NCBI RefSeq assembly: GCF_000022265.1
Contig: NC_011979.1
Coordinates: 2,070,001-2,102,000 of the forward strand
Reading direction: 5' to 3'
Length of the DNA: 32,000 nt
DNA from: Geotalea daltonii FRC-32
Lineage (GTDB): Bacteria > Desulfobacterota > Desulfuromonadia > Geobacterales > Geobacteraceae
The notes below the pieces were generated by a model. That model searched no databases, was not told where the DNA came from, and saw only the letters and a program-made list of their open reading frames with translations. This document shows, one piece after another, positions 2 through 23,997 of the stretch; the first letter of the stretch is position 1; each line of letters opens with the position of its first letter. The translations under genes and the position numbers were made by a program.

Positions 2-736
2 CTCCTCGGCGCCAAGGTTACGCCGGTCACTGCAGGCACTGCCACCCTGAAGGATGCCATGAACGAGGCTATGCGGAACTGGGTTACCCATATCCAGACC
101 ACCTTTTACGTGATCGGCACCGTTGCCGGCCCCCATCCTTATCCGCTGATGGTCCGTGACTTCCAGTCCGTCATCGGCCGTGAGGCGAAAAAACAGCATC
201 TGAAGGTTGAAGGAAAGCTGCCCGACTACCTTGTGGCTGCCGTTGGCGGGGGAAGCAACGCCCTCGGCCTGTTTTATCCATTTATGGACGACATGGATGT
301 AAAAATGGTGGGCGTTGAGGCTGCCGGCTATGGAATAGCCTCTGGCAAGCACGCGGCACCGTTGTGTGCCGGGACCGTCGGGGTTCTACATGGTAACAAA
401 ACCTACCTGCTCCAGGATGAATTCGGCCAGATAGCCCATGCCCATTCCATTTCCGCAGGCCTTGATTATCCCGGAGTCGGTCCTGAGCATGCCTGGCTGA
501 AGGATTCCGGGCGTGCGGAATACGTGTCGGTAACCGATGATGAGGCACTGGAAGGATTCAAGCTCCTGACCAGGGAAGAGGGGATCTTGCCTGCACTGGA
601 GTCATCCCACGCCATTGCCCATGTCATTAGACTGGCACCGACCCTTCCCAGGGAAAAGACTATAGTGGTCTGTCTCTCCGGCAGGGGGGATAAGGACATC
701 CATACCGTTGCCGATGTGATGGGTGTTGAGTTGTAA
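2..736 (+). CDS. trpB: Tryptophan synthase beta subunit, C-terminal part (5' end lies outside the window)
   Basis: The frame is open from position 2. The translation [23 protein letters not shown]...[10 protein letters not shown]...VGGGSNA...[15 protein letters not shown]...LSGRGDKD is colinear with the C-terminal two thirds of canonical TrpB. Stop TAA at 734-736. Confidence 0.95.
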
Positions 737-3783: not shown

Positions 3784-5850
3784 CTATGGCACCGGTCGTC
3801 CTCCACCGGATTCAGCCAACAGGTAGTTATATGCTCGTTGCCATGTGGTGGCGCCGAGCTTGGTGCTGAGCGTAAGATCGTCGTTCAAGCCGTGAAGAGT
3901 TCCATTGAACGTGGTGCTGACGCTGCTATTCAACAAACCATCATCGAGCCAGTCTATGGAATCATACATGAGCCTTTTGGCGTAGGCGGGATTATGGGCA
4001 AAAGCACCGGGGTCGTAATAAAACATGAACCAGTTGTAGGTTGCTCCCATGTTATAGGCGGCTTTACGTATTAACTTCGGACTTCCGCCGTCAACCGGAT
4101 CGATGAAGCCGGAGCCGGGGACGGTCTCGTTGGTACTGGCAGAACGCAGCCAGGGCTGAATGATCTGGCCTGTAGTGTTGGTCCCGTACCAGTTGCTGGA
4201 GGTGGGAACCCGTCCCTGGGTATCGAAATCCACTCTTGTCAGGCGGACGTCGAGAGCAAAGGCTAGTACCTGTCTGAAGGCTTCAACTGCGGCGCGGAAA
4301 TCATCCTTTTCCGCTTGCAGTTTTGCCGGTGTCCAGGCATTGGAACCGGTATGGCAGGTGGCGCAGGCTCTGCTGGTTATCGCTGTGATCGGCAGGGCCG
4401 GATTCCTGACATCATGCAGATAGGTGTTGCTTGCTTCGCGATTGACGGGCAGGAATGTATGGGACGTGGCGCCGTCGGAGCCATTGCTGTTCAGGTGACA
4501 GCCAATGCAGGGACCATGGCCGCGGCTGTCGCCGGCGAAAGGCCCTTTGCCGTTCGGTGCTGTCTGATTCATGCCGATGTAGCGATGGGAAAACTTGTCG
4601 CTTGAGTACATGGCGGCGCTGGTATAGAACTCGAAGCCACCTTTTTGATAGAGCATCTGGGCTGCGCCACGGAAATGGTTGACGATCCTTCCGGTACTCG
4701 CCCAATCGATACCCCTTAAGTCGGCCATCTTGATGGTATTACCCACAAGCCGCCCTGAGTGGCAGGCGACGCACAGGTTGGAATCTCCCGCATCATCGAA
4801 TGTCACTACAGACCGAACGGCACGAGTTATTTTACTTGCCGGCCTTCCGGAGTAGTTGGCATAGATGAGGGTTTGGGGCACTTTGCGCAATTTGAAATTG
4901 TAGGTGTTCCCCTTGCCGTCGTCATGACAGACGTCGCAGTTGGTCAACTCCCTCGTCTTGTCTGATGAAAGCCTGCTTCTAAGGGCGGAAAAGGTGGCGC
5001 TTGGCAGGTTCATATAATCGTCAAGCCGATATGGCTTTCCGGTTTTAGGATCGGCGGGTCCAAAGGGACTGAGATTGGTAAATCCCGATTTGACATAATT
5101 GATGAAACCGGTCGAGGTGTGGCAGCGGAGACAGCCGGAGTTGTAAGTGGCGCTGGCTGTGCCTGTAGAATTATCGCTCCACTGCTGCGATGCCGGACCG
5201 AACGAACCTGCGGTCTTGAAATCGACTTCCTCCCGGGAAATGTTACGGAAATCGTATTGGATGGGGGCACTCGTTTCATTTGGATTTTCCAGGCCAAGAG
5301 TAGTGCCATGCCCGCTGCGCGACCAGTCCTTGTTGTACGTGATCAAGGTACTGGTGTCGTGAGGATTATGGCACTTGCGGCAGTTGTTTACATAATTATA
5401 AGAAACAAAGGATGCCGGGTACTCATAGCCGGTCATGTTGTTGAAATGGGCGCTCTGTGTGTTAAGCGGCAGACCGGCGTAACTCTTGCGAGCATCGTAG
5501 CCGGTTGTTGCATTATGGCATTTGCCACACATGCCGGCTTTTTCAGGGTTGTAGAATTCAAGCCCGGCCGTTGTCGAGCCGCCGTGGCAGCTGCCGCAGG
5601 TGTTTGGATGGCCGTTGCCGCTGCCGTGGCAGTCGATGCAGCTGGCTCCATGAAGTGTCCCGTGTGCCGACCGTGCCCACTCATCATTGATTTTTGCACC
5701 GGTAACGGATGAAATAGCCTGTGATGTATTGTGGCAGTCAATGCATTTTTCCGAGGCAGCAAAGGTTGACCCATTCTGACTGGTTTTATCACTTCCGCAG
5801 CCACCCAATAACAGTGTGAATAACAGGAACATTAATCGGCAATATTTCAT
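3784..5850 (-). CDS. Decahaem c-type cytochrome lipoprotein (paralog A, 688 aa)
   Basis: Signal peptide with lipobox LLLGGC. Ten CXXCH motifs: CIDCH x2, CGSCH, CGKCH, CRKCH, CLRCH, CDVCH, CVACH, CIGCH, CATCH. AAGGAGG Shine-Dalgarno sequence upstream of the ATG at 5850. Confidence 0.9.
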   Translation of the reverse strand: MKYCRLMFLLFTLLLGGCGSDKTSQNGSTFAASEKCIDCHNTSQAISSVTGAKINDEWARSAHGTLHGASCIDCHGSGNGHPNTCGSCHGGSTTAGLEFYNPEKAGMCGKCHNATTGYDARKSYAGLPLNTQSAHFNNMTGYEYPASFVSYNYVNNCRKCHNPHDTSTLITYNKDWSRSGHGTTLGLENPNETSAPIQYDFRNISREEVDFKTAGSFGPASQQWSDNSTGTASATYNSGCLRCHTSTGFINYVKSGFTNLSPFGPADPKTGKPYRLDDYMNLPSATFSALRSRLSSDKTRELTNCDVCHDDGKGNTYNFKLRKVPQTLIYANYSGRPASKITRAVRSVVTFDDAGDSNLCVACHSGRLVGNTIKMADLRGIDWASTGRIVNHFRGAAQMLYQKGGFEFYTSAAMYSSDKFSHRYIGMNQTAPNGKGPFAGDSRGHGPCIGCHLNSNGSDGATSHTFLPVNREASNTYLHDVRNPALPITAITSRACATCHTGSNAWTPAKLQAEKDDFRAAVEAFRQVLAFALDVRLTRVDFDTQGRVPTSSNWYGTNTTGQIIQPWLRSASTNETVPGSGFIDPVDGGSPKLIRKAAYNMGATYNWFMFYYDPGAFAHNPAYAKRLMYDSIDWLDDGLLNSSVSTTFNGTLHGLNDDLTLSTKLGATTWQRAYNYLLAESGGGRPVP
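5576..5770 (-). repeat. Copy A of the conserved N-terminal haem-module DNA shared by the two cytochrome paralogs
   Basis: Aligns by eye with 7585-7779. The core 5576-5650 versus 7585-7659 differs at only about 8 of 75 positions. It encodes ...CIDCHGSGNGHP..CGSCHGGST. Confidence 0.7.
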
Positions 5851-6134: not shown

Positions 6135-7871
6135 TTAGTACGGTCTGGCGGTGGAGTAGAAAGTTCCATCCTGTCTTTGAAAGAACCCTGACGGGAACGC
6201 GGTACTCACATATGATTCATTCAACAACCCATCATCGAGAAAATCGAGAGAGTCATAGATAAGTCGCGCTGTGTAGCGGTGATTGTGAGCATAGCCGCCG
6301 GGGTCACGGAAGCAGAGATTCAGGTTGAAGGCGGCACCGAGTGTCCCCTCGTTAGGCCATGGAGCCTGAGCCGGGACCGGTGGCGTCACGGTAGTGTTAC
6401 CTGCGTAGCCGTAGGCTTTCGTCCGGTCATTGTGGTTCACTCCCCCGGGCCAGAAATAGGGGACGCGGTCCGGGTCATAGTATATCCCCTTCGCAGCCAG
6501 GGCGTCCTCCAGTTCCTTGAGCCTTTCGGCATATTCGGCCTTCAGGGTGCGTATGTCGGCTGGGTCTCCGAATGCCAGAGAGACGCTCCCCACGTGGCAC
6601 TTGACACAGACACGGTCGTTTGCCGGGAAGGAAGAGATCGTTGCGTTGATAACCTCCCTGGGACTTTTGGGTCCAGTACCATCCAGTTCCACCACCTTCA
6701 TTGTGTGGTTGTCGTCGTACATATGGCAGGCAACGCAGGGACCACGGGTGGTGCCCAGATTTACCGTGTAGGTTTTGATCACATTTTTGATGCCCAGTTC
6801 ACCGTGCATGAAATAGACACCGCCGTTGTAGATAAGCTGGTAATCGCTATGGGGGCGGTATTCATAGCCCAGGGTACCGTAGAGGGTGCCTGCGGCTGCG
6901 AAATAATGGGAATTTTTTGCCGTTGTCTGGGCAGTACCGGGGTAGGTACCGAAGAAGTTCCTGCCTGAGGTCAGGCCCGAATGACAGTTGATACAGAGAT
7001 TGGAATCTCCTGCGCTCTGATAGGTGGTGCTGGTGGCACTTTCATTTGCTTTTCCGTAGGTAAGGATGGCGCTGCTGAAACTGCCGTAGGGAACGGTCAC
7101 GCCATTGACGCCGCTTGTCCTGCCGTCGACCCTCTTGTAGGAGTAATCCGTATGGCAACCGTTGCAGCGGAGCATTTCCCTGCTCTTGTCAGCTGAAACC
7201 GTTGCCCAAGGCGATGTATCTCCGGTCTTTATGTATTTCAAGAATCCGGTGGTGGTGTGGCACCTGTTGCATGGGTTCATGGTCTTGAAGTCGTAGTGGA
7301 TCCAGGGATCGGCATTGACTTCCCCGTGGCCCGATTCGGCCCATTCCCGGTGCTGCGGCAGGAGGGTGCTTTGGTGGGGAGCATGACAGCCGGTGCACTT
7401 GTTGACGTTTTGCGTTCCAACGTAGCTGGAGGTCGGGACTTTGTCTCCATAGGTGTTGAGAGTGGTGTAGACATCGAAGTGTTTTTCCCCTACGCCGAGT
7501 GGGAAACGTGTTGCATTGACACCATGGCATTTATAGCACTGACCGGCAGAGTCGGGGTTGTGGAATCCCGTGCCGGCAACAGTGGAGCCGCCGTGGCAAC
7601 TGCCGCAGTTGCTGGGGTGGCCGTTACCGCTGCCATGGCAGTCGATGCAGCTTGCTCCTCTCATGAGGTTGTGGCTGGACGCGGCCCATTCGTCGTTAAT
7701 CTTGGCTCCGGTTACCTTTGACACAGGGCTGGAGATGTTGTGGCAGGTGATGCATTTATCGGAGGCAGCGAAGGTGGATTGGGTCAGGCTGTCACTGCTA
7801 TCGCTGCCGCACGCTGTCAACAAAAGCAGCAGTGAGAATAAAATCAGCGTTAGAGGATAAGACAATCTCAT
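6135..7871 (-). CDS. Decahaem c-type cytochrome lipoprotein (paralog B, 578 aa)
   Basis: Signal peptide with lipobox LLLTAC. Ten CXXCH motifs: CITCH, CIDCH, CGSCH, CYKCH, CTGCH, CNRCH, CNGCH, CINCH, CVACH, CVKCH. AAGGAGG Shine-Dalgarno sequence 7 nt upstream. Colinear with paralog A along its whole length. Confidence 0.9.
   Translation of the reverse strand: MRLSYPLTLILFSLLLLLTACGSDSSDSLTQSTFAASDKCITCHNISSPVSKVTGAKINDEWAASSHNLMRGASCIDCHGSGNGHPSNCGSCHGGSTVAGTGFHNPDSAGQCYKCHGVNATRFPLGVGEKHFDVYTTLNTYGDKVPTSSYVGTQNVNKCTGCHAPHQSTLLPQHREWAESGHGEVNADPWIHYDFKTMNPCNRCHTTTGFLKYIKTGDTSPWATVSADKSREMLRCNGCHTDYSYKRVDGRTSGVNGVTVPYGSFSSAILTYGKANESATSTTYQSAGDSNLCINCHSGLTSGRNFFGTYPGTAQTTAKNSHYFAAAGTLYGTLGYEYRPHSDYQLIYNGGVYFMHGELGIKNVIKTYTVNLGTTRGPCVACHMYDDNHTMKVVELDGTGPKSPREVINATISSFPANDRVCVKCHVGSVSLAFGDPADIRTLKAEYAERLKELEDALAAKGIYYDPDRVPYFWPGGVNHNDRTKAYGYAGNTTVTPPVPAQAPWPNEGTLGAAFNLNLCFRDPGGYAHNHRYTARLIYDSLDFLDDGLLNESYVSTAFPSGFFQRQDGTFYSTARPY
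7585..7779 (-). repeat. Copy B of the conserved N-terminal haem-module DNA
   Basis: See the 5576-5770 repeat. It occupies the same position in the paralogous gene. Confidence 0.7.
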
Positions 7872-7890
7872 TCATTTGCCTCCTTTAATC

Positions 7891-7918
7891 AAAATGACGG
7901 TATTGTGACTGTCATTTT
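7891..7918. promoter_or_regulatory. Inverted repeat in the divergent cytochrome control region / 5' UTR of paralog B
   Basis: AAAATGAC at 7891-7898 pairs with GTCATTTT at 7911-7918 (TGAC-N12-GTCA core). On the minus-strand mRNA the hairpin is followed by UUUUGAUU and then the AAAGGAGG Shine-Dalgarno sequence. Confidence 0.35.
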
Positions 7919-8108
7919 TCAAAGCATGGGAAATATAAGTTAGGTTACTGTTTTAGTAAATATTTTTCTTTGCCTGGACGCACGGCAGTTGACTTACCTG
8001 ATTCAATATTGTAATAGTGGTTGGGCTCATTTTTGTTTAAATGGTGGATGTTTAAAAGCTTTCTGCCTTTAATTTAGTATTTTTAATTCTGTGGGGAGGG
8101 TGTTTTTC

Positions 8109-9470
8109 ATGCAAAATCGTGCCGCGATTACCCTGCTTTTGCTGGCAGCAATAGCGCTTCCGCTGGTGGCCGTCGACTGTGCCCATGCGATTCCAGCTTT
8201 CAGCCGTCAACACAAAACCGAATGTTCCACCTGTCATACGATATATCCGGAATTGAACGAGTACGGAGAAGCATTCCAGAAAAACAGCTATGTGCCCTTG
8301 GTGAAGAAATCGGAGGTTAGTGCGCCCGCGCCTGCCGCCGGTCCGGTAGTTTCCGGTGAAGGCGATCCCGAACTGCTGGCGCAGCTGAAGTCACAGGCGG
8401 CTGCCGGCCAAGGGCAGGAAAAAAGAGCCCCGGAACAAAGGGTGCAGGGAAACGAAGGACTGTGGCTCTCCGGCATTCCGGAACTCCTCCCCGTTTCGTT
8501 CAGGGCAACCCAGAACGTGGTCTACAACAATGATGCTGCCGATAATCACAAATTCGATTTCGCCACCCGCACCTTTGTCCTCAACGGCGGCGGTGCGTTC
8601 AGGGACAAGGCCGGCTTTTATGCATCCTACATCCTCAGCAGTCATGCCCAGGACAGCACCAGCCGGAGCAGGGATCTCCACGAGTTGTTTCTCCAGTGGC
8701 GCAACCTTCTCGACACCCCGTTCAATATCAAGTTCGGCCGATTCGAGCCGAAGCTCAACCTGTGGAAATCCAACAACAAGATCACGACTGCGTCCACATT
8801 GGCACCACTGTCCTACAGCGTTGCCGGAGTATTCCCCAGCCGCTTTACCCAGACCTCAAGCCAGGACGCACTTGAGGCCAACGCCATCCTCTGGAAACGG
8901 ATCTTCGTTGCCGGCGGCATAGTGGATCGGGACGGACAGGACCGCAAGGAAGGTTACGGCCATATCTCCTTGAAGCTGGGAGGGGCGGATTTCCATGGTG
9001 AAGAGCCCGAGATGGACCTGGAAAGCGAGAGCATCTTCGATTATCTGACGGTGACCTTCGGCGGCTTCGGTTATGTGGGACGCAACACCTTCGACGATAC
9101 GGGTATCGGCGCCCAGAACCGTTTCTACCGCGCTGGTGGCGACATGGACCTTCAGTACAAACGGCTGAGGATCAAGGTGAGCGGTGTCCACGGCTGGGAT
9201 GAAAACCCTGATTACAGCAGCGCCCCTGTGGAGAGGGATTCCGTTGTCGTCGGCTCTGAGGCCGAATACTACCTGGGATCACCGATCGACGCCGCGGTGC
9301 TTTTCCGTTATGAATACCAGGATGACGGGCTGGAGATTACCCGTCGCTATGTGCCCGCTGTAGTTTACACACCACTGCAGAACGTCAAGCTGTCCCTTGA
9401 GTACCGATATGAAGACATGCGGGAGAAAATTTCCCGAATTGCCCTTCTTGGTGTAACGTACGCTTTTTGA
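8109..9470 (+). CDS. Fused monohaem cytochrome c / outer-membrane beta-barrel protein (Cyc2-like)
   Basis: Start chosen at ATG 8109, with GGGGAGGG 8 nt upstream (the ORF track starts at GTG 8091). Signal peptide ends AHA. A single CSTCH lies a few residues after the cleavage site, in IPAFSRQHKTECSTCHTIYPELNEYGEAFQKNSY. An A/P/G/Q-rich linker follows, then roughly 350 aa of alternating hydrophobic/polar strand-like segments ending ...LLGVTYAF (terminal Phe, typical of outer-membrane barrels). Confidence 0.75.
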   Translation: MQNRAAITLLLLAAIALPLVAVDCAHAIPAFSRQHKTECSTCHTIYPELNEYGEAFQKNSYVPLVKKSEVSAPAPAAGPVVSGEGDPELLAQLKSQAAAGQGQEKRAPEQRVQGNEGLWLSGIPELLPVSFRATQNVVYNNDAADNHKFDFATRTFVLNGGGAFRDKAGFYASYILSSHAQDSTSRSRDLHELFLQWRNLLDTPFNIKFGRFEPKLNLWKSNNKITTASTLAPLSYSVAGVFPSRFTQTSSQDALEANAILWKRIFVAGGIVDRDGQDRKEGYGHISLKLGGADFHGEEPEMDLESESIFDYLTVTFGGFGYVGRNTFDDTGIGAQNRFYRAGGDMDLQYKRLRIKVSGVHGWDENPDYSSAPVERDSVVVGSEAEYYLGSPIDAAVLFRYEYQDDGLEITRRYVPAVVYTPLQNVKLSLEYRYEDMREKISRIALLGVTYAF

Positions 9471-9503: not shown

Positions 9504-9863
9504 ATGAATAAAGTGTTTTCTTTTCTGATTTTATTCTGCCTTTCTACGACCGCTGCCCACGCCGGGTTGAAAGTCATCGGCAGGGGGGACAGCATGCGGC
9601 TTGATCCTGCAAAATTCCCATCGGCAATGAAGGCTAATTATGAGATCATGAAAACCAAGTGTGTGAAATGCCATACTCTGGAAAGGACAATCGTGGCCAT
9701 TCAGACAGGTGTTGCACCTATTTCCGGACAGATCTTCGACCGGAACGCGACCAAGGCATATGGCGTGAAAATGCTGCGCAAGCCCGATTCCAATATGAGC
9801 AAGCCGGAGGTCAAAGCTACAGTTGAGTTGATGAACTACCTGCTTAATGAAGCTGAACACTAA
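9504..9863 (+). CDS. Small periplasmic monohaem c-type cytochrome
   Basis: 119 aa. Signal peptide ending AHA. Single CVKCH motif. GGAGGA Shine-Dalgarno sequence 7 nt upstream. Only 33 nt downstream of the Cyc2-like gene, so probably co-transcribed. Confidence 0.8.
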   Translation: MNKVFSFLILFCLSTTAAHAGLKVIGRGDSMRLDPAKFPSAMKANYEIMKTKCVKCHTLERTIVAIQTGVAPISGQIFDRNATKAYGVKMLRKPDSNMSKPEVKATVELMNYLLNEAEH

Positions 9864-9948: not shown

Positions 9949-12189
9949 GTGAAAAATATGAAACTCAGTTATCGCCTGGTTGGCTCCTTTCTGATCATGG
10001 CCCTGATTGTCGCCTTGACCGGCGCCTTTGGCTCATGGAGTATGAAAAGGGTGGGGGATCAGATCCAGAACATCATGCAGAACCTGGCAAGCCAGCAGAA
10101 ACTTGTCCTGCTCATGGGAGTGACCCAGAAATACTGCCATGTGAGCCTGATGCAGGCCGCCATGGTTCGCGCCGAAAAGGACAAATTCGAGGAATATGCC
10201 GAAGACTATCGCATGAAGCGGGATTTGTTTCGCAGCCAGTGCGAAATCATGCTGAAAGGAAATGCCAAACTCGGCATCAAGCCTGCCAAGGCAGGAAGTG
10301 TTATTGAGCAACGAACCAACGCCGCCCTTGCCAGCTGGGAAGAGTTCGAGAAAATAGCTGACGAACTTCTGGCTCACAAGGAGGGCCTGCTGAAAGGCGT
10401 GAAGCCTGGTGTCGTAGATCAGGCAGCAATGGCTGCCCTGGCTGACAACAGGCTCAACAAGCTTGCCCAGGAAGATATTGCCGATGCGATTGAAAAGGCA
10501 AAGGCCGACACTGATGATCTGCTCCTTGAGGTCGGAACGCAGATGACCAAGGCGGACAAGCAGGTTCATGAGATTCAGAGCACTTCGGTGATCGCCTTTG
10601 TCGTTGTGATTATCGCAGCGGTCATTCTCGGTATACTCCTGGGTATCAAAACCACAAGGAATATCGTTACGCGCATCCATTCAATGGCAAAAGCACTTGA
10701 TGAAGGTGCAGATGGAAATCTTACCACAAGGGTAGCTGTTGATTCCGGCGACGAGTTGGGAAAACTTGGTGCGGATTTCAACGTCATGGCTGCAAAACTC
10801 TCCGTGGTGGTCGGTAAAGTCAATCGATCTGCTGCCGAGCTCACCTCTATCTCCGGTACCATAAATGAGTCATCCCAGAAGGTTGTCGATACTGCCAGAA
10901 TACAGGCTGACAGTGTCAACAACACTTCTGCGGCTATTTCCCAGATAAATACCTCGGTCAAAGGGGTTGCCAGGGGGGTGGACAGCCTGTCCCTTTCCGC
11001 CTCCGAAAGCTCTTCCTCTATTCTCGAAATGGCCGCCAGTGTCGAAGAGGTTGCCCAGAATGTTGAAACACTTTCCCATTCCGTTGAGGATGTGAGTTCT
11101 TCCATCACCCAGATGGCCGCATCCATCAAGCAGATCGGCAACGGGGTGGTGAGCCTTCTCGATGTGGCCACGTCAACTGCTTCGTCGGTTATGGAAATGG
11201 ACAGCACCATCAAGCAGGTGGAAAGAAATGCCATGGAGACAGCTGCCATCTCCGATGAAGTCCGCAAGGATGCTGAAACCGGCAAGGAAGCCGTTGAGGC
11301 TACCATCGAAGGTATTGATGAGATCAAGCGTTCTTCCCGCATTACCTACGAAGTTATTGATACTCTCTCCGGACGGACCACCGATATTGGCGCCATTCTT
11401 TCAGTTATCGACGAGGTGGCGGAGCAGACAAATCTTTTGGCCCTGAATGCAGCCATTATTGCTGCGCAGGCTGGGGAGCACGGCAAGGGGTTTGCCGTGG
11501 TGGCCGACGAGATAAAAGAACTTGCCGAACGTACCAGCAGTTCCACCAGGGAAATTGCCATGGTCATCAAAGCCGTGCAGGATGAGACTCACCGGGCGGT
11601 AAAGGCAATGGAGCAGGCTGAAAAGAGCATTGCCGACGGCGAGCTCCTGTCACGGAAATCCGGTGAAGCGTTGAACAAGATCGTAACCGGGGTGCAGAAA
11701 GCAACCGAACAGGTGGATGAGATAGCCCGCGCCACTGTCGAGCAGGCAAAGGGCAGCCAGATGATCCGCGAAGCAATGGAGCAGGTGTCCGAGATGGTGG
11801 AGCAGATTGCCAAGGCCACTCGCGAGCAGGGGCAGGGAAGCGAATTGATTATGACCGCCGTGGAAAAAATGAAGGCACTCACCGGACAGGTCAGGTCTTC
11901 TACCCGGGAGCAGAGCAAAGTCGGCAGCTTCATTGCCAAATCAACGGAAAACATAACCGACATGATTCAGCAGATAAAACGCGCCTGTGATGAACAGAAC
12001 CGGGGCAGCGAGCAGATCGTTGTCGCCGTCGAGGACATTCAGCAGTCGACCCATATCAACCTGGAGGCCACCGGTGCCATGAACGAAGCGGTTTCGGGCC
12101 TTTTCCGCCAGATCGAAGTCCTGCGCAAGGAGATGGACATGTTCAAGGTGGACGAGGAAGAAGTTACTGAACTTGAGGAAACGGCATAA
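9949..12189 (+). CDS. Methyl-accepting chemotaxis protein with a periplasmic helical sensor, a HAMP domain and an unusually long signalling hairpin
   Basis: 746 aa. Two TM segments (approx. res 10-30 and 205-225). HAMP-like segment (...[18 protein letters not shown]). Highly conserved MCP tip [34 protein letters not shown]. About 450 aa follow HAMP, with visible internal repeats. The start is GTG 9949 (ACGAGGG upstream) or ATG 9958. Confidence 0.95.
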
Positions 12190-12204
12190 TTCGGAGAACT
12201 CGTG

Positions 12205-12999
12205 ATGGGCAGAATTGACAATACTTTTGCCAAGCTGGCAAAAAACAAAAAAAAGGCGCTGGTAACTTTTATTACCGCCGGTGATCCGGACCTTGAAACA
12301 ACCGAATCACTGATCATCGATCTGGAGAAAGCAGGTGCCGACCTGATAGAACTGGGGGTTCCATTTTCGGATCCCATGGCTGACGGTCCCACCATACAAC
12401 TGTCTTCGGAGCGTGCTTTGGCAGCCGGTACCACTTTGCCAAAAATTTTAGCCACAGTAAAATCGGTACGCAGAAAGACCCAGATACCTATCATTCTGAT
12501 GGGCTATTACAATCCGATTTTTCTTCACGGCGTAGAGCGATTTGTTTCTGATGCCGTTGCTGCCGGTGTGGACGGGGTTCTGCTGGTAGACCTGCCGCCG
12601 GAGGAAGCCGGGGAATTCAAGGCCATTGCCGACAGGAGCGGATTGGCGGTTATCTTTCTCCTGACTCCAACTTCCGATGAGGAACGAATCAGGAAAGTGG
12701 CGCACCTGGGAAGTGGTTTCATCTACTACGTCTCGGTTACGGGTGTTACCGGCGCCAGGTCAAGCGTAGCCGAAAATGTGTTTTCCGACGTGCAAAAGAT
12801 CAGGAAACGGGTGACTCTGCCTGTGGTTGTCGGATTCGGCATTTCCGACCCGGCTCAGGCCGGCAGCATAGCCTCGGTCGCCGACGGAGTCGTTGTCGGC
12901 AGTGCCCTTGTCAGGCAGTTCGAACAGTTCAGCGGCAAAGAGCTCCACACGAAGTTATCAACCATGGTTTCAGCCCTCAAGGCAGGCATTGCAGCGTGA
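12205..12999 (+). CDS. trpA: Tryptophan synthase alpha subunit
   Basis: [11 protein letters not shown]...[19 protein letters not shown]...[10 protein letters not shown]...VVGFGIS is colinear with TrpA. ATG 12205 has GGAGA 7 nt upstream (the ORF track starts at GTG 12202). Confidence 0.95.
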
Positions 13000-22251: not shown

Positions 22252-23997
22252 ATGTATATGTTTGGTTGGACCGGAAAAATTTTAAAAGTAGACTTGACCA
22301 GTGGCCGTTGCTGGCGTGAAGATATCTCTCTGGAACTGCTCCATTCCTATCTGGGTGGGCGGGGGCTGGGGGTGCGGTTGATGCGGGATCACTTTCACCT
22401 GGATCCGTTTGACCCGCAGATGCCGTTGATCTTTGCCGTTGGGCCACTGTGCGGCACCTCTGCCCCCACGGCGGCAAGACTGGCTGTCGTCTCCCGGTCG
22501 CCTCTTACCGGCACCATTTATGATTGTTCGGCTGGAGGACGCTTTGCCTGGCGCTTCAAGGCCGCAGGGATCGATGCCTTGTTCATAACGGGCCAGAGCA
22601 GCCAGCCGGTAGTGCTTTCCATTGCTGACGAGAAGGTTGAGCTTCGGGCTGCTGACCACCTTTGGGGGCAGACGGTTCATCAAGCCATGTCTGCGCTGGG
22701 GGCAGGAGGCAGCACTGCCTGTATCGGCCCGGCCGGAGAGAATGGCGTCCTTTATGCCAACATCATGATGGGGGAAGGGAATTCAGTCGGCCGAGGCGGC
22801 CTCGGGGCAGTGATGGGCAAAAAGCGGCTGAAGGGTATTGTCGTAGAGGGCAGTAAATCTACTGCGGTCTTTGATCAGGCCCGTTTCGACCACGCCCGCC
22901 AGGATGTGATGCGCCTTTTTCGAGCTTCTCCGGTCATCTTCGGCGAACTGGGCATTGGTGAATACGGCACTCCGGCCCTCGTGGACCTGATGCGCCAGCG
23001 GCGCATGGCTCCAACCGAAAACTTCAGCAAGACCTTTTTTGCCGAATCGGGGAACTATTCAGGACCTGCCATCCGCAAAGCTTGTGCCGCAAAAAAGGAC
23101 GGCTGCTATGGCTGCCCTATCCAGTGCAAGAAGAGCACTCCGAACGGGGAGCATCTTCCCGAGTACGAAACGGTTTCCCATTTTGGCGGTCTAAATGGCA
23201 TTGCCGATCTCCACGCCATCGTCAAGGCAAATACCCTCTGCAACGAGCTGGGTCTGGATACCATAACCGCTGCTGCCACCCTGTCTGCATGGGGAGAGAT
23301 TCGTGGCAGGTTCCCCATAGCAGAGGAAATTCCCCAGCTTCTCCAAGACATTGCCTGCCGATGCCATGACGGGGAACTCCTTTCCTTAGGCTCGCGCCGG
23401 GTGGCAGAAGCACTGGGCCGGCCGGAGTTGTCCATGTCGGTCAAGTCCCTGGAACTGCCGGCCTATGACCCCCGCGGTGCCTACGGCATGGCGCTTGCCT
23501 ACTGCACCAGCAATCGCGGGGGCTGCCATCTGCGCGCCTATCCCATCTCCCACGAAATTCTGAGGAAGCCGGTCCCCACCGACCGCTTCTCCTTCTCGGG
23601 CAAGGCACGGATCATCAAGATCGCCGAAGATACCAATGCTGCTGTCGATTCCCTGGTTGCCTGCAAGTTCTCCTTTTTCGGCGCCACCCTGGAAGAATAC
23701 GCAGAGTTTGTGACCGCCACAACCGGCGTTGAATATACGCCCCAGTCACTGAAGGAAACAGGGGAGCGCATCTATTTGACCGAACGATTCTATAACTGCG
23801 CCAACGGCTTTACCGCAGTGGATGATTTCCTTCCGGACCGGTTCTACAGTGAGCCCGGCTCCAGTGGTGATGGAATCGACATTCATCCGATCGACCGGGA
23901 CCGTTTCCATGGGGAGATGCAGAAATACTACCGGATTCGTGGCCTGACAGAAGACGGGACCTTTGCTGATTCGAATTTTCTGGAGCGTCTGCCTTGA
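22252..23997 (+). CDS. aor: Aldehyde:ferredoxin oxidoreductase family (tungstopterin) enzyme
   Basis: N-terminus MYMFGWTGKILKVDLTSG is typical of the AOR family. Fe-S ligand motif CYGCPIQC, plus a later Cys in NRGGCHLRA. 581 aa. The start is ATG 22252 or 22258. Confidence 0.9.
   Translation: MYMFGWTGKILKVDLTSGRCWREDISLELLHSYLGGRGLGVRLMRDHFHLDPFDPQMPLIFAVGPLCGTSAPTAARLAVVSRSPLTGTIYDCSAGGRFAWRFKAAGIDALFITGQSSQPVVLSIADEKVELRAADHLWGQTVHQAMSALGAGGSTACIGPAGENGVLYANIMMGEGNSVGRGGLGAVMGKKRLKGIVVEGSKSTAVFDQARFDHARQDVMRLFRASPVIFGELGIGEYGTPALVDLMRQRRMAPTENFSKTFFAESGNYSGPAIRKACAAKKDGCYGCPIQCKKSTPNGEHLPEYETVSHFGGLNGIADLHAIVKANTLCNELGLDTITAAATLSAWGEIRGRFPIAEEIPQLLQDIACRCHDGELLSLGSRRVAEALGRPELSMSVKSLELPAYDPRGAYGMALAYCTSNRGGCHLRAYPISHEILRKPVPTDRFSFSGKARIIKIAEDTNAAVDSLVACKFSFFGATLEEYAEFVTATTGVEYTPQSLKETGERIYLTERFYNCANGFTAVDDFLPDRFYSEPGSSGDGIDIHPIDRDRFHGEMQKYYRIRGLTEDGTFADSNFLERLP

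Follow-up and report, generated by a model that had tools for sequence, protein, structure and literature searches.

A divergent Cyc2-like cytochrome-porin of Geotalea daltonii FRC-32 in a conserved gene module with a small cytochrome c, a decaheme lipoprotein cytochrome, and a chemoreceptor

Introduction

In metagenomics, Cyc2 serves widely as a marker gene by which microbial iron oxidation is recognized. Here, we analyzed a Cyc2-like gene for a fused monoheme cytochrome-porin in a 32,000-nt stretch of the Geotalea daltonii FRC-32 genome (the window; coordinates are window positions unless a locus is named), together with the adjacent genes for a 119-residue cytochrome c (c119), a methyl-accepting chemotaxis protein (MCP), and decaheme lipoprotein cytochromes. 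Cyc2 proteins are defined by a signal peptide, one CXXCH heme-binding site, a 16-strand OprO/OprP-like porin, the motif AXPXFAR[Q/K][T/Y] before the heme site, and PXL after it (PMC8406198). The shorter form PXFAR[Q/K][T/Y] was the screen for the published tree of 1,593 Cyc2 sequences and was called unique to Cyc2; Keffer et al. recommend the FeGenie hidden Markov models (HMMs) for detecting new homologs and regard cluster 3 as the functionally most uncertain of the Cyc2 clusters (PMC8406198). The presence of Cyc2 in a Geobacter-type genome is not a new observation: already in 2020, the FeGenie paper listed cluster-3 cyc2 genes in G. sulfurreducens, G. bemidjiensis, and Rhodoferax ferrireducens and a cyc2 gene in G. 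metallireducens, and its authors speculated on iron oxidation by Geobacter species, treating a Cyc1-type or other Fe-oxidation partner in the genome or neighborhood as supporting rather than defining (PMC7005843). Like A. ferrooxidans Cyc2 (cluster 2), M. ferrooxydans Cyc2PV-1 (cluster 1), and Leptospirillum Cyt572 (cluster 3), the Geotalea protein combines a signal peptide, one CXXCH, and a predicted 16-strand OprO/OprP-like porin, with PxL in the same place past the heme site and an F-x-R-x-x pentad exactly 3 residues ahead of the first Cys. Unlike them, it carries the subfamily motif AIPAF[S/T/A]R[Q/E/L][H/Y] in place of AxPxFAR[Q/K][T/Y]; homology of its barrel to those of clusters 1 and 2 is undetectable in profile comparisons, and its gene has c119, a decaheme lipoprotein, and a chemoreceptor as partners instead of Cyc1, rusticyanin, and oxidase genes.

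Two further kinds of described system invite comparison. In MtrCAB of Shewanella and OmaB-OmbB-OmcB/Ext of Geobacter, a porin of at least 20 strands sheathes a periplasmic cytochrome with 8 to 10 hemes. The present locus resembles the MtrCAB and OmaB-OmbB-OmcB conduits in placing genes for a barrel, a periplasmic cytochrome, and a multiheme lipoprotein cytochrome (surface exposure here is predicted) side by side, but its barrel has 16 strands and its own single heme, and its periplasmic partner c119 is a monoheme protein of 119 aa. Desulfovibrio vulgaris DcrA and G. sulfurreducens GSU0582 and GSU0935 are periplasmic chemoreceptors with a CXXCH inside their own sensor domain. The receptor of the window is likewise a chemoreceptor of a deltaproteobacterial anaerobe that would take its signal from the redox state of periplasmic c-type heme; unlike DcrA, GSU0582, and GSU0935, it has a sensor without CXXCH, and the hemes would sit on distinct proteins, of which one is predicted to lie in the outer membrane. 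For Shewanella congregation and energy taxis near insoluble acceptors, swimming cells have been modeled as sensing via outer-membrane cytochromes (PMC5789149). The logic is the same, but the abstract of that article names no dedicated module of outer-membrane cytochrome, small cytochrome, and receptor, and the proteins involved are unrelated (Mtr-type decahemes and other receptor types) (PMC5789149).

From sequence and gene context, we propose that the module forms an electron relay from the outer membrane to the periplasm whose state is read by the chemoreceptor, a reading to which we assign a probability of about one-half. A limited full-text literature search did not find a description of the Cyc2-like/c119/decaheme/sensor module or of the variant motif of the subfamily. 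What looks new is this motif and the fixed partnership with c119, a decaheme lipoprotein, and a specific MCP or kinase sensor.

A conserved gene module around the Cyc2-like gene

In the window, the Cyc2-like gene (8109..9470, +) is followed after 33 nt by the gene of c119, a predicted periplasmic monoheme cytochrome c with a CVKCH site (9504..9863, +), and after another 85 nt by the MCP gene (9949..12189, +); no terminator-like site was found between these three plus-strand genes in the window scan, and their spacing is operon-like. A gene for a lipoprotein cytochrome of 578 aa with 10 CXXCH and the lipobox LLLTAC (6135..7871, -) lies divergently upstream. We scanned a one-genome-per-species collection with the Cyc2-like query, which returned 102 relatives, and examined the best 80 of the 102 for taxonomy and loci. 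All 80 belonged to Geobacterales/Desulfuromonadales, including Geotalea, Geomonas, Citrifermentans, Oryzomonas, Geomobilimonas, Geomesophilobacter, and many metagenome-assembled genomes (MAGs). Every well-flanked locus among them had a multiheme cytochrome gene of ~570 to 690 aa directly upstream and a c119 homolog directly downstream. Two arrangements were distinguished. In type A, which is that of the window, the multiheme gene is divergent, and the MCP, trpA, and accD follow. In type B, the Cyc2-like protein is 39 to 49% identical to that of the window, the multiheme gene shares the strand of the Cyc2-like gene in what looks like an operon, and no sensor lies within 7 kb. A metagenome scan with c119 as the query returned 167 relatives, and nearly all well-flanked loci among the best 80 of the 167 had the Cyc2-like gene, then c119, then the sensor MCP.

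The module census comprised 94 loci flanked by 2.5 kb or more on each side. The Cyc2-like and c119 genes occurred together in 92 of them, c119 was present in 93, a homolog of the decaheme lipoprotein cytochrome was adjacent in 87, and the sensor chemoreceptor was found in 56. By combination, 51/94 loci held the Cyc2-like gene, c119, the sensor, and a multiheme cytochrome; 36/94 held the Cyc2-like gene, c119, and a multiheme cytochrome but no sensor; and 4/94 held the Cyc2-like gene, c119, and the sensor but no multiheme cytochrome. Three layouts were each seen in 1 of the 94 loci: the Cyc2-like gene with c119 only (L014), c119 with the sensor but no Cyc2-like gene (L138), and a canonical-motif relative of Cyc2 alone (L085). 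The last of these adjoins Rieske, cytochrome b, and multiheme cytochrome genes and has no c119. These recurrences indicate that the Cyc2-like gene is part of a conserved predicted module with c119, usually with a decaheme lipoprotein cytochrome, and, in the clade of the window, with a chemoreceptor of a specific sensor type. The subfamily so delimited is large: our searches recovered 396 c119 clusters and no fewer than 102 species-level genomes.

Two features of individual loci were also recorded. The Geobacteraceae-type locus L138 (L138:7986-10569) keeps c119, the sensor MCP, and trpA/accD/folC-like open reading frames (ORFs), with no Cyc2-like or multiheme gene in the 8 kb upstream, so the c119-MCP pair can persist without an adjacent barrel gene. 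In the type A loci L004, L005, L015, L082, and L090, c119 and the MCP lie ~0.95 kb apart, presumably with an additional gene between them.

Receptor linkage outside inherited gene order

The sensor-linked arrangement recurs with changed gene orders and surroundings in a Nitrospirota MAG and in unrelated metagenome contigs. In a MAG labeled Nitrospirae (Nitrospirota), locus L083 has the MCP, Cyc2-like, and c119 genes, in this order, beside rpsB-tsf-pyrH-frr, with identities to the window proteins of 50% over 736 aa for the MCP, 61% for c119, and 35% for the Cyc2-like protein. L166 keeps the gene order of L083 in a further flanking context, and in L167 the order is Cyc2-like, c119, and a shorter MCP, beside feoB and fur-feoA. 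On a single strand, L168 encodes in turn the MCP, c119, a decaheme lipoprotein cytochrome, and a tandem pair of Cyc2-like proteins, and in L145 the MCP gene is convergent. L084 has, upstream of Cyc2-like and c119, a gene for a hybrid histidine kinase (HAMP-HisKA-HATPase-REC-REC-Hpt) in place of an MCP; the N-terminal 270 residues of this kinase are homologous to the sensor and HAMP region of the window MCP (29% identity; E 2e-27). Constant neighbors combined with a swapped output domain classically mark a sensor that works with accessory input proteins, and the sensor domain here shows this pattern. The occurrence of one sensor domain on an MCP and on a hybrid kinase, beside the same two cytochromes, points to a redox relay protein as the periplasmic "ligand" of the sensor.

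We rejected the explanation that the MCP is adjacent purely through conserved Geobacteraceae synteny, since the triad recurs with other gene orders, other flanks, another phylum label, and another output domain.

Sequence conservation separates the two cytochromes. The mature core of c119 is 0.62 to 0.69 identical to that of the window in most of the distant sensor-linked modules and 0.56 in the kinase-linked L084, against a mean of 0.54 for c119 of type B modules that belong to the same order and lack the sensor. The Cyc2-like proteins rank the opposite way, at 0.32 to 0.39 in distant sensor-linked modules versus 0.46 in type B. In a rough neighbor-joining tree, the members at the base of the clade carry the sensor link and have no multiheme cytochrome, which suggests that the sensor link is ancestral and that the decaheme partner was added in Desulfuromonadales.

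Two details of these loci deserve mention. In L167 (L167:7001-14124), feoB and the fur-feoA fusion gene are convergent and follow immediately after the triad, and a PGI gene lies upstream, as it does on contig P0129; the neighborhood hints at a link of the triad to ferrous iron. The tandem Cyc2-like genes of L168 (L168:3047-5626) encode 409 and 432 aa, each with AIPAFARQ.KT.C.TCH.

The small cytochrome c119 and the receptor sensor

The c119 protein is 100% identical to a database entry named "cytochrome c, 1 heme-binding site" of Geotalea daltonii FRC-32. Its assignment rests on the ORF and its conservation, with residues C53, C56, H57, M90, and M98 invariant, and on a weak resemblance to class I cytochrome c. 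His/Met ligation is predicted because M90 and M98 are both invariant. The AlphaFold2 model is four-helical (predicted local distance difference test [pLDDT], 76.7), and a Foldseek search placed class I monoheme cytochrome c domains first (cytochrome cz, 3a9f; SorB, 2blf_B) at nonsignificant E values of 0.4 to 0.8. Sequence matches in the PDB were marginal (mitochondrial cytochrome c, E 0.04 or worse). We consider c119, with moderate confidence, to be a small cytochrome c of the predicted His/Met type.

The MCP consists of a transmembrane segment, a periplasmic helical sensor (~aa 35 to 212), a second transmembrane segment, a HAMP domain, and an MCP signaling domain, as indicated by Pfam matches to HAMP and MCPsignal and a weak match to 4HB_MCP_1. 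The sensor carries the conserved motifs GNxKLG, GSxxE, and DDLLV, and a word-indexed protein search with its 240-aa fragment returned 7 matches. Neither the MCP nor its homologs have a CXXCH, and Cys, His, and Met are not conserved at any position of the sensor alignment. Heme binding by the MCP itself was rejected, given that it has no CXXCH.

Architecture of the Cyc2-like protein

The ORF of the Cyc2-like gene spans 8091..9470 (+) in the ORF listing, and translation from the ATG at 8109, 7 nt downstream of the Shine-Dalgarno-like run GGGGAGGG, gives 453 aa before the stop. This ORF and ribosome-binding site, the homologs, and orthology to a FeGenie Cyc2_repCluster3 match in G. bemidjiensis support the gene call. 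Residues 1 to 27 (8109..8189, +) read as a signal peptide with the hydrophobic core LLLLAAIALPLV and the terminal residues A-H-A, after which IPAFSRQHKTECSTCHTIYPELNEYGEAFQKNSYV begins (N-terminal region, MQNRAAITLLLLAAIALPLVAVDCAHA | IPAFSRQHKTECSTCHTIYPELNEYGEAFQKNSYV). The single CXXCH occupies residues 39 to 43 (nt 8223 to 8237), which agrees with the lone heme site after an AHA leader in the first-pass annotation of this DNA; the sole other Cys, at position 24, is within the signal peptide. Alignment invariance and motif comparison delimit the heme-binding segment at residues 28 to 62 (8190..8294, +), IPAFSRQH-KTE-CSTCH-TIY-PEL-NEYGEAF. It is followed by a low-complexity Ala/Gly/Pro/Gln/Glu linker at residues ~63 to 128 (8295..8492, +), evident from its composition and low pLDDT. 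The composition is as first described, but the linker measures ~55 to 65 aa instead of about 70, and its length differs between homologs (565 alignment columns reduce to 435 profile positions). The remainder, residues 129 to 453 (8493..9467, +), is a predicted 16-strand outer-membrane β-barrel that ends with Phe (...GVTYAF), and an aromatic last residue, which the earlier description had singled out, is found in nearly all homologs.

The barrel assignment rests on an AlphaFold2 model, on structural matches, and on a weak Pfam match. Built from a 63-sequence alignment (mean pLDDT 72.8; predicted TM-score 0.67), the model contains 16 β strands across residues 129 to 452 with block pLDDT values mostly between 75 and 94, in line with the 15 to 16 strands previously counted by eye. 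Values fall below 50 at residues 22 to 77 and 101 to 123, which cover the heme segment and parts of the linker. Foldseek returned 225 PDB matches at E ≤ 0.001, the best being the classical 16-strand porins OmpT, OmpF, PorB, Omp32, and OprP (2o4v), with E values of ~1e-10 (4.6e-10 for 2o4v) and target-normalized TM-scores of 0.52 to 0.70, so that the structure check proposed for the barrel came out in its favor. The Pfam scan gave a sub-threshold Porin_O_P match alone (E 0.011), the NCBIfam scan gave no match, and a PDB sequence search with the protein gave one spurious designed-repeat match and nothing else. Modeled in this way, the protein is a short N-terminal segment with one c-type heme site, a flexible linker, and a 16-strand outer-membrane barrel. 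His285 (GYGHISLKLGG), located mid-barrel, is invariant in the 63-sequence alignment, kept in the Nitrospirota homolog, and missing from the FeGenie cluster-3 MGDI protein; it could be a distal heme ligand if the heme segment lies inside the barrel.

A word-indexed search recovered 424 homologs at E ≤ 1e-3, with Geotalea toluenoxydans (87%), Geomobilimonas luticola (75%), and G. uraniireducens (68%) as the best named ones. An exhaustive profile search, run against 1.84 billion representatives at 50% identity, recovered 3035 at E ≤ 1e-3, of which 696 reached E ≤ 1e-10; most are full length, with 400 to 470 aa. Conservation is highest in the heme segment, where F31, R33, E38, C39, C42, H43, L49, N50, E51, and G53 are invariant across the 63-sequence alignment. 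One CXXCH after an N-terminal leader was found in 117/120 listed homologs; the 3 exceptions are truncated.

Placement within the Cyc2 superfamily

Family criteria were taken from Keffer 2021 (PMC8406198), McAllister 2020 (PMC7029218), and FeGenie (PMC7005843). The protein has the signal peptide and the one CXXCH, exceeds the minimum length of 365 aa with its 453 aa, and ends in a predicted 16-strand porin. PXL, with Pro as the 4th residue past CXXCH (CSTCH-TIY-PEL), is kept in 117/119 close homologs. Agreement with the strict motif AXPXFAR[Q/K][T/Y] is limited to 7/9 positions: AIPAFSRQH has Ala replaced by Ser and Thr/Tyr replaced by His. None of the 119 close homologs passed the strict PxFAR[Q/K][T/Y] screen, and all of them held the 3-residue spacing to the first Cys. 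The first-pass annotation had named as a check whether the N-terminal motif is common to bona fide Cyc2 proteins; PxL and the spacing are shared, and the strict upstream motif is not. The strict motif was passed by 67/132 more distant representatives, and 5/13 FeGenie-labeled sequences failed it.

In the published FeGenie output, the G. bemidjiensis ortholog 642555228_3323 (N terminus AIPAFSRQHKTECSTCHTIYPELNEFGDAFLKNSYV) is classified as Cyc2_repCluster3 with 66.2 bits against a cutoff of 27.3, and the window protein matches it at E 4e-103. Our family profile matched the FeGenie cluster-3 protein MGDI01000032.1_4 from end to end (E 1e-34) and with the barrel alone (E 1.7e-14). Against cluster-1 (Sideroxydans ES-1) and cluster-2 (Rhodoferax and Dechloromonas) sequences, the match was confined to the ~60-aa heme segment (E 1e-5 to 1e-12). 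This assignment uses FeGenie-labeled sequences from the supplements of the FeGenie paper, standing in for A. ferrooxidans Cyc2, Cyc2PV-1, and Cyt572. A phylogenetic placement, which had been named as a check, was made by rough neighbor joining, and the subfamily forms one clade that adjoins the cluster-3 sequences and stands at a distance from those of clusters 1 and 2. Judged from these sequence comparisons, the protein belongs to a divergent subfamily within the Cyc2 superfamily of fused cytochrome-porins, and cluster 3 is the nearest to it. The domain logic of Cyc2 first read from the DNA (signal peptide, one heme, 16-strand OprP-like porin, and PxL) is borne out; the detectable kinship to the Cyc2 of Acidithiobacillus (cluster 2) and the Zetaproteobacteria (cluster 1) extends to the ~60-aa cytochrome part but not to the barrel. 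Membership in cluster 1 or 2 was rejected on the ground that those clusters are matched in the heme segment only.

The G. sulfurreducens PCA "cluster 3 cyc2" (NC_002939.5_1044) has 240 aa, with the heme segment MSAFARKYGMQCDGCH...PKLNEFG and a Pro/Ala-rich tail but no barrel. It is not a fused cytochrome-porin, and the stated FeGenie length filter ought to drop such a protein.

Proposed relay and alternative explanations

We hypothesize that the barrel-held heme would carry electrons across the outer membrane, exchanging them on the outer side with the decaheme lipoprotein or with a soluble Fe(II)/Fe(III)-type species and on the inner side with c119, whose redox state would thereby mirror extracellular redox conditions. 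The sensor domain of the chemoreceptor would read the state of c119, probably via redox-dependent docking of c119, which is proposed because the sensor has no heme site of its own. The sensor output would bias swimming and, in relatives with a histidine kinase of the L084 type, could act on gene expression through a phosphorelay. A more specific version, in which the Cyc2-like barrel heme, c119, and the helical sensor constitute a dedicated three-part redox input to a chemoreceptor or, in some lineages, a histidine kinase, is put forward tentatively, as somewhat short of an even chance. If true, it would give the Fe(II)/metal-directed taxis that has long been reported in Geobacter a molecular pathway and would be an instance of the Cyc2 fold used for sensing rather than energy conservation, and the surface decaheme lipoprotein of Desulfuromonadales would be an added antenna for solid phases.

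Several points weigh against the proposed relay and its reading by the receptor. The pLDDT of the heme segment is below 50, so the model does not fix the position of the heme relative to the barrel, and the Foldseek E values of 0.4 to 0.8 leave the fold assignment of c119 weak. Because the sensor conserves no Cys, His, or Met, docking of c119 is purely inferential. The tree is a neighbor-joining sketch without support values. Most sensor-linked loci are those of Geobacteraceae with inherited synteny, and independent cases number ~6. Tight spacing alone proves little, since trpA itself starts 12 nt past the MCP stop. Finally, 36/94 loci, the paralogous type B operons of multiheme cytochrome, Cyc2-like, and c119, have no sensor within 7 kb, and the relay must therefore have a function that does not need an adjacent receptor.

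These operons lead to a different explanation, in which the decaheme lipoprotein, the Cyc2-like protein, and c119 form a new minimal porin-cytochrome complex for outward respiration to extracellular Fe(III), Mn(IV), or humics, and the chemoreceptor is merely a co-inherited or co-regulated neighbor. Such a conduit is plausible, since the relay also works where no receptor is adjacent, as the 36 type B operons show; it would also suit a metal reducer such as Geotalea daltonii, the decaheme lipoprotein cytochrome adjacent in 87/94 loci (in 36 of those 87 it shares the strand in an apparent operon that has no sensor in its vicinity), and the single-strand arrangement of all parts in L168. Yet the basal modules outside Desulfuromonadales have the sensor and no multiheme cytochrome, the sensor domain stays with the module despite the change of output domain, and c119 is more constrained in the sensor-linked modules. 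One heme in a 16-strand barrel with a monoheme partner would moreover be a thin wire next to MtrCAB and Pcc, and altogether we regard a purely respiratory conduit as rather unlikely. Fe(II) oxidation or electron uptake, which the first-pass annotation suggested, would mean electron flow in the opposite direction: as in Acidithiobacillus Cyc2, Mariprofundus Cyc2PV-1, and Leptospirillum Cyt572, the barrel heme would oxidize dissolved Fe2+ at the cell surface, and c119 would take the electrons inward for energy (e.g., nitrate-dependent Fe(II) oxidation) or iron detoxification. This role is compatible with membership in the Cyc2 superfamily and with the feo neighborhood of L167, which links that module to ferrous iron. 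The ortholog passes the FeGenie cluster-3 HMM, c119 would be a natural periplasmic acceptor, and the possibility was raised for Geobacter by the FeGenie authors (PMC7005843). Against it, cluster 3 is the cluster of most uncertain function (PMC8406198), the relation to the tested cluster-1 and cluster-2 proteins is confined to the ~60-aa heme segment, and the strict Cyc2 motif failed. The gene context lends an Fe(II)-oxidation role no support: no Cyc1, rusticyanin, bc1, or terminal oxidase genes are present in the 32-kb window, and the canonical-motif L085 is the one that stands beside Rieske and cytochrome b genes, without c119. An iron oxidase would also leave the decaheme lipoprotein and the sensor unexplained. 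We consider this role unlikely, and the fallback that the earlier suggestion had allowed, a distinct use of the fold, fits best.

That the protein might be an ordinary OprO/OprP-type anion or phosphate porin with an incidental N-terminal CXXCH is very improbable and close to refuted. The sub-threshold Porin_O_P match, the Foldseek match to OprP, and the name "OprO/OprP family phosphate-selective porin" carried by some homologs in databases are what one would cite for it; however, the heme segment is the most conserved part, with C39, C42, and H43 invariant in 63 sequences and one CXXCH in every full-length homolog listed, the heme site keeps a fixed register to the F-x-R and P-x-L motifs, and the conserved partners are all cytochromes.

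What emerges is a large, well-delimited Cyc2 subfamily in iron reducers, beside a chemoreceptor and multiheme cytochromes. If it senses redox conditions or exports electrons, such "cluster 3" matches should not be counted as potential for iron oxidation. For the perception of extracellular electron acceptors or Fe(II) by metal reducers, the module offers four named genes for direct testing, and it is present in the cultivated, genetically approachable G. daltonii, G. uraniireducens, G. bemidjiensis, and Geomonas.

Neighboring genes and other observations in the window

A second, paralogous decaheme lipoprotein cytochrome (688 aa, 10 CXXCH, lipobox LLGGC) is encoded at 3784..5850 (-), next to the one that is divergent from the Cyc2-like gene. 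At the same position, G. uraniireducens and Geomonas limicola have a single gene, and the tandem pair looks like a lineage-specific duplication. No match was found in a PDB sequence search with the decaheme protein. The divergent intergenic region (7872..8108) is AT-rich and contains one promoter-like consensus match per strand; matches in the promoter and terminator scan were not above shuffled expectation.

Downstream of the MCP lie trpA, accD, folC, and lptD. With trpA only 12 nt after the MCP stop, it may be cotranscribed with the Cyc2-like/c119/MCP module. A PALP-family (trpB-like) gene at 59-736 (+) and trpA at 12202-12999 (+) are ~11 kb apart and hold between them an ABC-F gene, the cytochromes, and the MCP, a split layout also seen in G. 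uraniireducens (L001). Farther downstream, an aldehyde:ferredoxin oxidoreductase gene (22252-23997, +) is located amid rmlB/rmlD-like, NhaA, mannose-1-P guanylyltransferase, MurJ, MazG, and Tgt genes, surroundings that otherwise consist of housekeeping cell-envelope and sugar-nucleotide genes.

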